Shown one piece after another: positions 1 to 15,324 of a DNA stretch of 15,682 nucleotides (within the stretch, counting starts at the first letter, position 1; each line of letters opens with the position of its first letter). Source of the DNA: a virus (taxonomy: Duplodnaviria > Heunggongvirae > Uroviricota > Caudoviricetes); IMG/VR virus record IMGVR_UViG_2526164665_000024; one strand, 5' to 3'. Made by a program: the position numbers and the translations under genes. A model generated the notes under the pieces. That model saw only the letters and a list, made by a program, of their open reading frames with translations. It was not told where the DNA came from and ran no database searches.

Positions 1-274
1 TGTCCCCCAGTTCGGCCATCATGGCTTTTGTCTGCTCGCGTAAATCACGCAGGTTACGGGCAATCAGCTCATTACGGGAGGCTTCCCGGCTGATGGCCGC
101 CGGTGAAAGCTGCTGCTCTTCCGGCAGGCCCGCCTCACGGATCAGACGGTTGATTTCCTCGCGTATCTGGACCTGCGTCAGACGTTTTTCACGCAGCATT
201 TCCAGCAGTGGCTTACGGATGCTGTCGGGGAGCAAATCCACCTTGCGCACGCGGCCACGCGTCGGCTTGTCCAT
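1..274 (-). CDS. Mu gp27-like DNA-binding protein (putative small terminase subunit); N-terminal 91 codons only, gene runs off window start
   Basis: Minus-strand ATG at 274-272 preceded by AAGGGGG RBS; frame open down to position 2; translation MDKPTRGRVRKVDLLPDSIRKPLLEMLREKRLTQVQIREEINRLIREAGLPEEQQ...; resembles Mu-like gp27 proteins from memory; sits downstream of the lysis cassette as in Mu. Plus-strand ORF 21..365 is its antisense shadow. Confidence 0.5.
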   Translation of the reverse strand, partial: MDKPTRGRVRKVDLLPDSIRKPLLEMLREKRLTQVQIREEINRLIREAGLPEEQQLSPAAISREASRNELIARNLRDLREQTKAMMAELGD

Positions 275-8949: not shown

Positions 8950-9882
8950 TCACACCTGTGAGAGTAATTCAGGGTTGGTATAAACCTCTTTAAAGGCCGC
9001 ATTAATATGTTTTTCTGTCAGCGCCGCACCTTCACCGCTGGCGGTGAGCCACGCCTGGTTAAGCGTATGTGTCAGAACGCGTAACGCTCCCGGCTTTTCA
9101 GCGATAGCCTGCATGACGGCCAGCTCGGCCTCACCACTGATCCCCCACGCCCTGGCAATGGCCAGCACATCCGCCTTTTTGGCCTTGCGAAGTTGTTTTG
9201 TACGGGCAAGACGGCTGAACAGGCGCGATAAATCATCAAAGGCGCGGCGTCCACCTTTAAACAATCCGCGCGGGTTACCAATAAGCACCATCCCGATCCC
9301 CGTGGCGTCCTGAATTGCCCGGAGTTGCTCCAGACCGTCAATACCAAGATGATCCGCCTCATCCACAATCACCAGTCCACGCGTTCCCATCAGGCGACGG
9401 CGGATGGCGCGGGATAATGCCCCTTTGTTCGCGCGGGTGTAATCAATCCCCAGCGCATCGGCCAGCTCCAGCAGACACTCCGTGACGCTGGAGTGCGCGG
9501 GTGACAGGGTGATCATCCAGGTGTTTGGTTGCTCCTGGCAGTAATTACGGGCAGTGGCCGTTTTACCCACACCCGGTACGCCCACAATAACGTTAATACA
9601 GCCCATCAGACGAACCGCCTGAAACAGTGTGCGCAGCTCCTGGACTGTCTGCGTTTCCACAAACTGCGGCGGTTCCGGCAGTGCGCTTTGTTTATTCCAG
9701 TTCTCATACCAGGAACGCAGGGAAGCAGCCACAGCAGCGTTATCGCCTTTATATTTTCCCTTACGGAAAGCCGATAATGTGCCGTCGGAAATTCCCGCCT
9801 CTCTGGCGATGGCATACTGTGTCAGTACGCCGCCATCAATAAGTTCATCAATGGTCTTGATTACATCGTTAATATCAGTCAT
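8950..9882 (-). CDS. B: MuB-like AAA+ ATPase, transposition target-DNA activator
   Basis: 310 aa (Mu B is ~312); Walker A GVPGVGKT; N-terminal HTH-like region; directly downstream of transposase A; GAGAGG RBS before ATG 9882. Confidence 0.9.
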   Translation of the reverse strand: MTDINDVIKTIDELIDGGVLTQYAIAREAGISDGTLSAFRKGKYKGDNAAVAASLRSWYENWNKQSALPEPPQFVETQTVQELRTLFQAVRLMGCINVIVGVPGVGKTATARNYCQEQPNTWMITLSPAHSSVTECLLELADALGIDYTRANKGALSRAIRRRLMGTRGLVIVDEADHLGIDGLEQLRAIQDATGIGMVLIGNPRGLFKGGRRAFDDLSRLFSRLARTKQLRKAKKADVLAIARAWGISGEAELAVMQAIAEKPGALRVLTHTLNQAWLTASGEGAALTEKHINAAFKEVYTNPELLSQV

Positions 9883-9916
9883 ATTATTAACCTCTCATTT
9901 GATACCTTGTTTAATC

Positions 9917-12046: not shown

Positions 12047-12295
12047 TCATGACGCCTTTCTCATATAGCTCTTAACCTGGTATCGACTGGGCCAGATTTC
12101 TTCAGGCGATACCCCAAGAGCATCAGCAATTATTTGCTGATACGGTCGGCAAGGAGTACGTAATACGCTTTTCAGCGAATCCCTGCTGTAACCAGCCTTT
12201 AAAGATAAAGAGCGCAGTGATAAGCCAGCCATGTGTAAGCGCGCCTTGATGATTTCAGGCGGCCAATCGTGATCTGAAACTTCTCTTCTACTCAT
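12047..12295 (-). CDS. ner: Ner-like DNA-binding early regulator
   Basis: 82 aa; DWPPEIIKARLHMAGLSLRSLSLKAGY...QQIIADALGVSPEEIWPSRYQ aligns closely with Mu Ner as recalled (DWHRADVIAGLKKRKLSLSALSRQFGY...EQIIANALETKPEVIWPSRYQ); GAGGAAG RBS; directly upstream of A. Confidence 0.85.
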   Translation of the reverse strand: MSRREVSDHDWPPEIIKARLHMAGLSLRSLSLKAGYSRDSLKSVLRTPCRPYQQIIADALGVSPEEIWPSRYQVKSYMRKAS

Positions 12296-12485
12296 ACTTC
12301 CTCTATTCTAAAAAGTTACCCGCGCGGATATTCGTGCGGATATCTGCACGGGTAAATAATGCATCACTAAAAATACCAAATCAAGGTATTTTTGGTATTT
12401 TGGCTAATTTTTGCTTTTGTCCTTATTTTTCAATTGGATAAATAGAAAGAAACCTTTCCTTAGAAAAGCACCAAGAGGTATCTTT
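12296..12485. promoter_or_regulatory. divergent promoter/operator region between ner and the repressor gene
   Basis: 190-bp AT-rich intergenic region between divergent genes; 7-bp inverted repeat TTACCCG/CGGGTAA (12316-12322, 12349-12355) enclosing direct repeats GCGGATAT (12324-12331, 12336-12343); 11-bp perfect palindrome arms AAAATACCAAA/TTTGGTATTTT (12370-12380, 12391-12401) with tandem GGTATTTT repeats; AAGAGG RBS at 12472-12477. Confidence 0.55.
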
Positions 12486-13016
12486 ATGTCGCAGGGAAAA
12501 GAACCTGTTATTGAACGTATTGGAATGCTTACAAAGCGCTACCCTTCAAGAAGTGCAGCTGCCAGAGCGTGGGGAATCAATATCAACACATTAAACAGCT
12601 ATTTCAAGGGAGGACAAACACAACCAGCCCCCAGAGAAAGTATCCTTATACGAATTTCTGAAAGTGAAGGAGTTAGTCTTGAGTGGCTTAAAGAGGGCAA
12701 GGGTGAATCACCAAACGATGTTGGTATTTGTGGTAATTTTGGTTGTTCTGGTGATAAGGGAGATCAACTTACACAGATGCTTTCATTCCTTACGAAAGAC
12801 GAACGAGAACAGTTAACCAATCTCCTTGCTCGCAAAGGTGTAGAGACGGTTCTGACACTGCTGGATAAAGAAAACCAGGATTTATTACAACTAGAAGGCA
12901 GGAAGCGCCTGGCTGCGTTGATGATTGTAGATATGCCAGACGATTGCGTCAGAGAGATTTTGGAAAAAACCGAGACAAGTAGGCAATCAAATCCGGTAGA
13001 ATCTAAAGCGGGTTAG
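12486..13016 (+). CDS. prophage repressor, HTH DNA-binding (Mu c-like by position)
   Basis: ATG 12486 with AAGAGG RBS (the ORF-track start at 12411 has none); HTH-like SRSAAARAWGININTLNSYFKG; transcribed divergently from ner-A-B, the position of Mu c. Confidence 0.65.
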   Translation: MSQGKEPVIERIGMLTKRYPSRSAAARAWGININTLNSYFKGGQTQPAPRESILIRISESEGVSLEWLKEGKGESPNDVGICGNFGCSGDKGDQLTQMLSFLTKDEREQLTNLLARKGVETVLTLLDKENQDLLQLEGRKRLAALMIVDMPDDCVREILEKTETSRQSNPVESKAG

Positions 13017-13178
13017 TTTGGCGAGGCTGGCCCGTATGTTAGTTGCCATATAGATTTAATGAAGTTTTAAACGCTTTAAAAAGTTGAGATCGCAGTATCA
13101 AAAGTTTTGCCGATTTTAGAATAAACGATTAATTATTGCACAATCGGTATCAAATAGACTTTAAGCGCTCATCCAGAC

Positions 13179-13260
13179 ATCACCTGTTTTATTTCAGTAT
13201 CTTACAGGTGATTTCACCTCCTTTCACTAAAACCCTCGTTGGTATCAAATGATTCACCTG
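13179..13260. repeat. cluster of TCACCTG / CAGGTGA motif copies incl. two palindromic arrangements; candidate protein-binding sites (possible transposase end-binding sites)
   Basis: ATCACCTG 13179-13186 and its inverse CAGGTGAT 13205-13212; AGGTGA-tt-TCACCT 13206-13219; GATTCACCTG 13251-13260; direct copies ~34-40 bp apart, 165-245 bp beyond the repressor stop. Confidence 0.4.
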
Positions 13261-14446
13261 GTTACATACTGCCGGAACAACCAGCAAACGGGCATTGTGT
13301 TCTGAAATCCAGGCTATTGATTCAACGTCAGCGACAGATCTGCGCTGTAAAAGAACTTGTAAAACAACGTAATAGAATTATCCGGAATGGTGGCGACTAT
13401 GCACTAGAACACCACAATTTCGCTCTCTCGGTAAGGCACTGTCACAGCATTCAACAGAATGTGACTTGCCAGATTTATTAGCGCCACCAGATGTTTAACC
13501 GGGTAACCACGACCCAGTCGGGGATATATTCCATCTTCTCGCTGACATCATCAAGAATAAAAAGGTTTATCACACTCAGAGCAACGTTCTTCAGCAGGCG
13601 GGATAATTCTTCAACATTTAGAAGATGTGTTATTAAAGGCATACAAACTGGACGTATTGTATTTTCTTTTGGTGGTTGACCTAAGGTAGCAGTTTATCCT
13701 GATGCGCTGAGATTTCTGTAATATCTACGTCAACATTCTCCTCGAATAGAAAATGCAGCCCCGGCAAGTGATTCACATTTTTTAACAAAACGTTGTTAGC
13801 GTGCCATTTTCAGAAGCTCTCCAAGAAAGCGAATTCTTTTCTCAAATTCTGCATTCTCAGACACAGCTTTCTACTCCATGGTAATGGCCCAAATACGAAG
13901 TTGCTCAGGATCATTAGTGGTGCTGAGAAGTTAAATAACCATGCGGAGTACCACTCGTCATCACGTATTTATATATCATGAAGCTATTGTTGTGTTTTGT
14001 ACATCAGTAGATATATTCTGATATACTCCTTTTGCTAGACATAACCTTTCACCTGCTTGCAAAGCTTCTGTGTTCTGACATTGCCAAATTGTTGCAATTC
14101 TGTATCCAGCCTTCTTTCAGTCATAGCTTCGGGCCGCGATAAGACTCACTGATCTGACCCTGATTCCTCTTGCAGACTTTATAGACCAATTAAAATGCAG
14201 TTTCTGCAGGTCAACGTCTGACCATCATTGTCATCACTCTGGCCATTAGAGTAACCTTCTGCATTCATCCTTTTGTAAAAAGTTTATGTCAGTATCAGCA
14301 ATTAACCGGACCTGATACTGATATGAGTCTTACCGCATATACGGTCAATTTCAGCAATTAATTACATTATCCACGCCAAAGTGTTTGTCATCGCAATGAT
14401 GGTACCTTCTTTCAGACACCATTTTTTCAACTCCGTTTTCCACGGA

Positions 14447-14471
14447 CCGCACTCTTATGTCAAGAGTGCGG
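14447..14471. repeat. perfect 10-bp-stem hairpin (CCGCACTCTT-atgtc-AAGAGTGCGG) directly abutting the IS3 terminus
   Basis: Read directly; last base of the stem is 14471 and the IS3 terminal TGATCC starts at 14472. No adjacent T/U tract on either strand. Confidence 0.6.
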
Positions 14472-14501
14472 TGATCCTACCCACGTAATATGGACACAGG
14501 C

Positions 14502-15324
14502 CTAAGCGAGGTTCTGGTTTTCAAATTGTTCCGGACTGAGGCCGCCACACCAACTGTGCCGCCGCCACCGATTGTAATCACATTCGATATAATTAAACAC
14601 CGTTGCCCGCATTATTTCCCGGCTGATAAAGTGTTCTCCATGGATACATTCCACTTTCAGCGAATGAAAGAAGCTTTCCACGCAGATTATGCCGCTTCAG
14701 TTGCGCCTGATAATCTGCTGAACAGTACTGGCCTCCACGGTCCGTGTGAACGATAACGTTCCGGGGCCTCTTACGCCGCCATAGCGCCATCTGCAGGGCA
14801 TCGCAGGCCAGTTGCGCCGTCATGCGTGGCGACATTGACCAGCCAATAACGGCACGTGACTACAGGTCAATGACCACTGCCAGATACAGCCAGCCTTCAT
14901 CTGTACGTAAGTACGTGATGTCTCCTGCCCACTTCTGGTTCGGGCCACTGGCGTAAAAATCCTGCTCCAACAGATTTTCTGACACAGGCAGGCCGTGTGC
15001 GCGGTAGCTGACCGGGCTGAACTTCCGGGAGGCCTTTGCCCTCAGTCCCTGACGGCGCAGGCTTGCCGCCACGGTTTTTACGTTAAAGGGGTAACCCTGA
15101 GCACGCAGTTCATCCGTCAGGCGTGGGGCACCGTAACGCTGTTTTGACCGGGTAAAAGCCGCGAGGACAACGCTGTCGCAGTGTTGGCGGAACTGCTGAC
15201 GCGTGCTTATCCTTGTCCGCCGCTGACACCACGTATACCAGCCGCTGCGGGCCACCCGGAGCACGCGGCACATTGCTTTGATGCTGAACTCAGCCTGATG
15301 TTTTTCAATAAAGACATACTTCAT
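14502..15324 (-). pseudogene. insF: IS3 orfB transposase (DDE), inactivated by an in-frame TAG and a 44-bp deletion
   Basis: Matches IS3 Orf[22 protein letters not shown]... up to ...LAVVIDL, then TAG (14860-14862) where I recall Trp (TGG); later ...KRHNLRG runs directly into [16 protein letters not shown]... in another frame, i.e. ~15 codons (SMSAKGCCYDNAC) missing between two CTGCGTGG repeats (junction ~14678-14685). Confidence 0.85.

Follow-up and report, generated by a model that had tools for sequence, protein, structure and literature searches.

Phage Mu fills its heads by headful packaging that starts from the left attachment site (attL), and the packaged DNA has a left-hand host tail of 50-150 bp (PMC2837660; PMC5977238). 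Mu-like prophages of the Sp18 family are intact, packaged and variably located in the genomes of Shiga-toxin-producing Escherichia coli and inside Shiga-toxin (Stx) phages (PMC2669165; PMC10132054), and Sp18 DNA is packaged efficiently (PMC2669165). The element itself is thus already known as the Sp18 family; no description of its end sites or of a packaging (pac) site was found in the searchable papers on the family, and what is added here is a corrected boundary, the likely transposase sites and a proposed series of terminase-pac specificities. We describe the left end of such a prophage in a viral DNA stretch of 15,682 nucleotides (IMG/VR record IMGVR_UViG_2526164665_000024, hereafter the window). 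Two systems appear to overlap at this end, namely a set of putative transposase sites with the core TTTGATAC(C) and an array of phased repeats, confined to the left end, in the spacer between them. The array, at 13179-13228, is probably where the small terminase of the Sp18 family recognises pac, a conclusion drawn from comparison of sequences.

A Mu-like prophage of the Sp18 family has the last 88 bp of its left end (attL) at window positions 13179-13266, and the preliminary description of this region was right to place a Mu-like left end here. The junction falls between …GGTTACA and TACTG, with 13266 the last prophage base and 13267 the first of the chromosome. We place the boundary at this point because the breakpoints of three independent comparisons coincide here: similarity to two Stx-phage records with an inserted 'Mu-like phage' stops at 13266, similarity to E. 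coli chromosomes begins at 13267, and the terminal 317 bp before 13266, present at many loci in 231 of 5426 complete E. coli genomes, give a match that always stops at 13266. These 317 bp are 100% identical between the window and Sp18 of the Sakai O157:H7 strain, which is inserted in sorM. The window holds the left 13.3 kb of the prophage, whose genes are encoded on the minus strand. The right junction falls outside the window, and all right-end data are from the near-identical complete phage in LC727881, which is 39,970 bp long, has TG...CA ends and is flanked by a 5-bp GATGA duplication. An exact junction, a terminal CA and, as seen in LC727881, a 5-bp duplication are the marks of a Mu-type att site, and 5'-TG...CA-3' termini with a 5-bp target duplication are likewise found in Mu, D108 and SfMu.

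Two side observations concern the termini. The annotation of LC727881 gives a 4-bp duplication (GATG) and ends of TATAG…TTACA; the sequence fits the 5-bp GATGA with TG…CA. Furthermore, the terminal dinucleotide is variable within the transposase family of the window, being 5'-TG (…CA) in the window itself, part of TATAACC… in several Sp18-type lineages (L040, L048, L049, L052, L053 and L005) and part of 5'-TATGAAG… in a Salmonella relative, where it was confirmed at four independent insertion sites (L111-L114). A TA terminus is unusual among Mu-type transposition.

Counting base pairs inward from each terminus, the 39,970-bp phage contains eight copies of TTTGATAC, six of them within 172 bp of the termini and inverted between the two ends. 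The left-end copies lie at bp 18-25 (L1), 113-120 (L2) and 165-172 (L3), and those of the right end at bp 20-27, 42-49 and 77-84, with a step of 22 bp from R1 to R2. This layout is like that of Mu, which has one terminal site, a spacer of ~85-90 bp and two further sites at one end, and three close sites at the other. Relatives were compared from Yersinia (vB_YpM_5 and Tongde) and Klebsiella (Kp4866-3), together with Raoultella, Klebsiella, Pluralibacter, Edwardsiella, Limnobaculum and IMG/VR loci. Most of those with 56-80% identical transposases retain all three cores and place L1 equally far from the terminus, and in six E. coli lineages with diverged sub-terminal DNA the GTATCAAA cores stand out as invariant islands. 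Given three copies per end, in inverted orientation, at a Mu-like spacing and kept in most relatives, we infer that TTTGATAC(C) is the end-binding repeat of the transposase; the motif distributions were observed directly, and the assignment of the protein to these sites is our interpretation of them.

The sites would differ from those of Mu in sequence. Their core in the window phage is TTTGATAC, whereas the Mu consensus ends in CGAAA(A/G), and neither this MuA site consensus nor the L1 sequence of Mu, D108 or SfMu is matched at the left end of the window. Comparison with the left ends of these three phages, which the preliminary description had recommended, gave no homology beyond the terminal TGTA. 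The N-terminal DNA-binding part of the window transposase likewise has no detectable similarity to Mu A; tblastn of the window protein against Mu A returned no match, and its near-identical LC727881 copy gave a weak C-terminal match. In relatives with a 73-77% identical transposase, TTCAAGATAA replaces TTTGATAC at all three left-end positions (L021, L022, L069-L074 and L079), which looks like an end-site specificity switch inside one transposase family. The remaining two copies of TTTGATAC(C) are internal, one at window 9898-9905 (+) between the transposase and MuB-like genes and the other at 19095-19103 of the 39,970-bp phage, near its physical centre. In Mu, the strong gyrase site lies near the centre of the phage genome.

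The repeat first noticed at this end was TCACCTG, described in three direct copies and one inverted copy together with two palindromes and a Mu L1-like decamer. All of these strings are present, with small corrections. Exact TCACCTG copies are found at 13180-13186 (+), 13254-13260 (+) and 13205-13211 (-), and the third 'direct' copy is TCACCTc (13214-13220), a 6/7 match. The palindrome ATCACCTG...CAGGTGAT is real and in fact has arms of 9 bp (ATCACCTGT at 13179-13187 and ACAGGTGAT at 13204-13212), and AGGTGA-tt-TCACCT is located at 13206-13219. The suggestion that these copies are themselves transposase end-binding sites, analogous to L1-L3, is scarcely credible. They do lie within 88 bp of the true terminus, in multiple copies and both orientations as a binding array might, yet there is no TCACCTG within 2.7 kb of the right end of the complete phage, the very absence from the other end that the preliminary description had named as refuting its proposal, and relatives with transposases of 56-80% identity do not have the motif at their left ends; most of these (at 57-80% identity) have TTTGATAC sites. 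Moreover, the terminus-proximal copy is mutated in two lineages, and TTTGATAC already fits the two-ended pattern of three plus three inverted sites; when recurrence in inverted orientation at both ends is asked for, TCACCTG fails and TTTGATAC passes with three copies per end. A protein-recognition array very probably does exist here, as had been proposed; its attribution to the transposase does not hold.

The statistics of TCACCTG are of limited help. The window has six copies against 1.4 expected, a number reached in none of 200 shuffles, and the complete LC727881 phage has nine, three of them within 87 bp of the left terminus. A look-elsewhere test for any 7-mer occurring at least three times within 90 bp found three such clusters in the window against a shuffle mean of 0.83, and at least one cluster was present in 55% of shuffles. 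Clustering by itself is modest evidence only. The case for this block is therefore based on its conservation across genomes, the statistics alone being insufficient.

From ATCACCTG to the terminus, 88 bp are almost invariant across lineages whose neighbouring DNA is unrelated. Read inward, bp 1-88 are TGTAACCAGG TGAATCATTT GATACCAACG AGGGTTTTAG TGAAAGGAGG TGAAATCACC TGTAAGATAC TGAAATAAAA CAGGTGAT. Hexamers follow one another at ~10-bp intervals, AGTGAA starting at bp 39, GGTGAA at 49, CCTGTA at 59 and ACTGAA at 69, with GGTGAT at bp 83. Read on the opposite strand, which is the phage's own, TCACC(TG) becomes the GGTGA unit, and the 9-bp palindrome is embedded in the array, an inverted copy of the unit making the palindrome. 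The array lies between the L1 and L2 cores and is absent from the right end of the complete phage, as expected of a pac site confined to the left end. The terminal TCACCTG copy (13254-13260) lies outside the array, in the L1 or cleavage-proximal stretch, and is probably fortuitous; the changes G9>A and G12>A, found in two lineages, each break it, and it is for this reason not constrained as a motif.

The 88-bp block occurs in seven distinct versions, which differ at 12 sites (bp 2, 9, 12, 26, 27, 30, 31, 33, 34, 63, 66 and 69). The stretches with the units and both arms of the palindrome, bp 36-62 and 70-88, are free of variable sites, and the three changes inside the array affect the palindrome loop alone. 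Avoidance of the array by the 12 sites has P ~5e-5, a value to be read loosely as the region was chosen post hoc. The set of sequences was picked by an exact match to the core, which is circular for bp 39-62; selection by transposase identity and TTGATA sites gave the same set. Eight unrelated inner flanks start immediately after CAGGTGAT. It could be argued that the repeats are without function and arose by chance in a block that has recently spread as a mosaic module, since the look-elsewhere statistic is weak, all carriers belong to one phage species and the window abounds in perfect 8-bp inverted repeats (38). We consider this improbable, as eight independent inner junctions fall at one identical base, the variable sites avoid the array and the positions of the units coincide with those of arrays in more than 20 other phages.

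The palindrome could also be viewed as a hairpin acting as a terminator or insulator, either for the outgoing repressor transcript or against incoming host transcription. The plus-strand RNA folds at -14.8 kcal/mol (z = -3.0), the repressor gene reads toward the left end, and the palindrome arms are invariant with a loop that varies at three positions. However, there is no U-tract, the 16-nt loop fails a terminator scan (no match at 13179-13220), and a better terminator-like hairpin is found at 13008-13035, directly after the repressor stop codon. The spacers of other phages with GGGAT- and GTGAT-type repeats, described below, lack both TCACCTG and the palindrome, and there are no compensatory changes by which pairing could be tested. 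Rfam gave no matches at E <= 1 for 12900-13500, and the 88-bp block contains no consensus promoter or terminator. A hairpin role is on this evidence very unlikely.

Arrays of this kind are not peculiar to the window. Repeats of the form CGGGA(A/T)/TGGAT with ~10-bp phasing occupy the same place in Mu, D108, SfMu, YpM_5, Tongde, Kp4866-3, more than 20 prophage loci and a Vibrio phage, the last a Mu-like phage with differing putative end sites that has five phased GGGAT-type units in the corresponding location. At the corresponding positions the relatives have CGGGAA / AGGAAT / CGGGAA / CGGGAT, Mu, D108 and SfMu have GGGAGG / TGGAT / GGGAT / GGGAT, and L079 and the Salmonella prophage have CGTGAT / CGTGA(T/G) / xAGAAT / TGTGAT. 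The units start at about bp 39/49/59/69 in the window, at about 29-30/39/49/59 or 39/49/59/69 in relatives and at about 32/42/52/62 in Mu, a positional agreement that is directly observed and is that expected of a common pac site. The left end of the window thus resembles that of Mu in its ~10-bp-phased spacer repeats (bp 30-75), in a repressor gene reading toward the end and in a small terminase of the gp27 family, and differs in its units, which are GTGAA-type in the window phage and GGGAT-type in Mu. Judged from these alignments, the spacer array is a widespread left-end feature of Mu-like phages, of which the Sp18 family has its own version. Mu, D108 and SfMu also have a perfect palindrome, GGCTTGCAAGCC, at bp 78-89 just inside the GGGAT array, and the inner arm of the Sp18-type palindrome is at bp 80-88. 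The inner palindromes of the Mu-type and Sp18-type spacers may be a common second spacer element.

YpM_5, Tongde and Kp4866-3 are informative in that they share with the window a transposase (57-80% identical) and the TTTGATAC layout of L1, L2 and L3, with L1 equidistant from the terminus, and differ from it in having a Mu-type GGGAT array in the L1-L2 spacer. The small terminases of YpM_5 and Tongde are 99.5-100% identical to that of Mu; that of Kp4866-3 is 46% identical and retains LSRTGLNRYA. In YpM_5, for example, a transposase 80% identical to that of the window is found with a 99.5% Mu-like small terminase and a Mu-type spacer. In effect these phages are natural module swaps, in which the transposase sites and the spacer array have been uncoupled from each other.

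The covariation of the array with the small terminase is centred on residues 55-66 of the protein, a hypervariable segment (LSRSGLNRYA / LSRGAVWRLA / LSPAAISREA) amid a conserved N-terminal domain. The Sp18-type small terminase reads QLSPAAISREAS at these residues, and that of the Salmonella relative, which has 72% identity to the Sp18 type, reads KLSRGAVWRLAS. All phages with GGGAT-type repeats have KLSR[ST]GLNR[YL]A at 55-66 despite only 43-71% overall identity. Repeat class agrees with the segment in 24 of the 24 loci showing both: GGGAT with LSR[ST]GLNR[YL]A (18 loci), GTGAA with LSPAAISREA (5 loci, the window and LC727881 agreeing), and GTGAT with LSRGAVWRLA in the Salmonella relative, where an intermediate terminase has an intermediate repeat. 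The left end of the Salmonella phage was reconstructed from four independent insertion sites and tied to the terminase-bearing IMG/VR contig by a 10.5-kb overlap at 100% identity. No small-terminase relatives between 57% and 100% identity were found among isolated phages, the intermediate coming from this contig and from Salmonella assemblies. The GGGAT class spans Mu A with its CGAAA-type sites, TTTGATAC-site transposases and TTCAAGATAA-site transposases. The class of the array is thus independent of the transposase and its site type, and it tracks the small terminase.

The same data bear on the main rival to a packaging role, namely that the phased repeats are an architectural element of transposition, a curvature or a bend of the HU/IHF type that brings L1 together with L2-L3. 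A-rich units (GTGAAA, CTGAAA) repeated every 10 bp are typical of bent DNA, the array is placed exactly between L1 and L2, and in Mu the L1-L2 spacer is bound by HU in the transpososome. The repeat class, however, tracks a segment of the small terminase, which would not be needed for a bend; constancy across unrelated transposases (Mu versus YpM_5) would be unexpected, and the G-rich units of the Mu type are not classic bending sequences. We regard bending as an unlikely explanation of the array, although the two roles are not mutually exclusive and may coexist.

The packaging proposal was reached because Mu packages from attL, because the Mu pac site is reported to map between L1 and L2 at ~bp 32-58 (Groenen and van de Putte, 1985; Harel et al., 1990), where the GGGAT repeats are found, and because Sp18 DNA is packaged; the function itself is our reading of the positional homology and covariation set out above. 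The small terminase, a homologue of Mu gp27, would contact the phased repeats from a single face of the helix, and the terminase would then cut the flanking host DNA, the head being filled from left to right as in Mu. An extension of this proposal, which we advance tentatively and hold to be a little short of evenly balanced, is that terminases of the gp27 family read pac through the variable segment (residues 55-66), which would recognise 10-bp-phased hexamers beside L1 with at least three matched specificities, so that the Sp18 family would represent a packaging-specificity switch. The pairs would be LSR[ST]GLNRYA with CGGGAT, LSRGAVWRLA with CGTGAT and LSPAAISREA with GGTGAA, and these share the tentative standing of the extension.

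A number of points weigh against these interpretations. The covariation amounts to three classes and hence two or three independent evolutionary events, and all GTGAA-type ends come from one phage species (transposases at least 92% identical). Units 3 and 4 of the array are weak, and the fifth (GGTGAT) is 3 bp off phase. GGTGA(A/T) occurs 46 times on the minus strand of the window against 17 expected, mainly on the coding strand, consistent with a Shine-Dalgarno-like word that is common genome-wide; lone copies are accordingly unspecific and only the phased cluster is specific. A single-sequence AlphaFold model of the small terminase (predicted local distance difference test score, pLDDT, 82) has three helices, with residues 55-66, a putative DNA-contacting segment, at the start of helix 3; Foldseek of this model against the PDB gave nothing with E < 1, and no solved homologue was found by sequence. 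Finally, on the side of the transposase sites, the L1 core is 18-25 bp and the R1 core 20-27 bp from the termini, a 2-bp offset that is not expected if both terminal sites position cleavage alike.

Table 1. Features of the prophage left end and its surroundings, in window coordinates.
Feature	Position	Strand	Basis
Small terminase, N-terminal 91 aa (Mu gp27 family), truncated by window edge	2..274	-	PF11985, PHROG 426
MuB-like gene	8950-9882	-	open reading frame list, homology
MuA-family transposase, 656 aa	10075..12045	-	Pfam HTH_Tnp_Mu_1 and Mu-transpos_C
Ner-like gene	12047-12295	-	open reading frame list, homology
Repressor-like gene, reading toward left end	12411..13016	+	40-50% identity to repressor-position regions of YpM_5 and Tongde
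L3 core TTTGATAC, putative transposase site (bp 165-172)	13095..13102	-	invariant island CAGTATCAAA
L2 core TTTGATAC, putative transposase site (bp 113-120)	13147..13154	-	invariant island GGTATCAAA
Left-end-only repeat array in L1-L2 spacer (bp 39-88), proposed pac array	13179..13228	-	phasing, position, conservation, covariation
Array units	AGTGAA 13223-13228; GGTGAA 13213-13218; CCTGTA 13203-13208; ACTGAA 13193-13198; GGTGAT 13179-13184	-	sequence
L1, putative terminal transposase site; core TTTGATAC 13242-13249 (bp 18-25)	13239..13264	-	core and same distance in relatives
Left terminus of Mu-like prophage, terminal ...CA, inward 5'-TGTAACC...	13265..13266	-	similarity breakpoints at 13266/13267
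Host chromosome flank including CTATTGATTCA (13314-13324)	13267..13324	.	100% identity to E. coli chromosomes

The Mu L1-like decamer belongs to the host. Within CTATTGATTCA, TATTGATTCA does equal Mu bp 3-12, so the match itself was correctly described; it is matched by chance in 3.5% of shuffles. It lies 48-58 bp outside the prophage, in E. coli chromosomal DNA downstream of cobU, and cannot be the prophage L1 site. Its 'wrong' orientation, which the preliminary description had left as a puzzle, is explained by its being host DNA unrelated to the phage. From 13267 the flank is a degraded IS/cobalamin region downstream of cobU, beside the remnant of an IS4-family transposase, and it is uninterrupted in genomes with an empty site. 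The Mu-like words TGATTCACCTG and TATTGATTCA are both coincidental, one being inverted relative to the terminus and the other in host DNA. Two phage records also match the host side: 'Campylobacter phage B14' (MG065683, 2.5 kb) is 100% identical to window 13404-13687, which is E. coli IS-remnant DNA, and is probably a contaminant or a mislabelled record, and the record of Escherichia phage phi467 has, close to its end, a match to the host DNA at window 14467-14685.

Among the genes of the window, the transposase is 57-80% identical to those of Yersinia and Klebsiella Mu-like phages. The intergenic region between the repressor and ner genes (12320-12400) contains GCGGATAT twice (12323-12330 and 12336-12343) and, at 12369-12400, direct and inverted copies of AAAATACC/GGTATTTT. 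These repeats bear no relation to TCACCTG and probably serve as operators or enhancers. A link of TCACCTG to the repressor/Ner operator or to a transposition enhancer was considered and rejected, the operator region having other repeats, and a link to the repressor operator is also disfavoured by the presence of the same 88-bp block in phages with differing repressor genes.

Collectively, these comparisons fix the exact boundary of the prophage at 13266 and correct a false 'Mu L1' match in host DNA. They also indicate where the cis-acting sites probably lie in a family of Mu-like phages that Shiga-toxin-producing E. coli commonly carry and that inserts into Stx phages as well as host genes. 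If the packaging reading is true, there are three natural pairs of terminase and pac specificity, by which pac recognition of the Mu type, so far poorly characterised, becomes directly testable. It would then bear on which co-resident elements are packaged and transduced together, and could guide tools in the style of mini-Mu with orthogonal ends and packaging signals. If the specificity-switch reading is also true, the recognition of DNA by the protein would follow a simple code that can be tested and re-engineered, and the Sp18 family would be insulated from cross-packaging by other Mu-like phages in the same cell.

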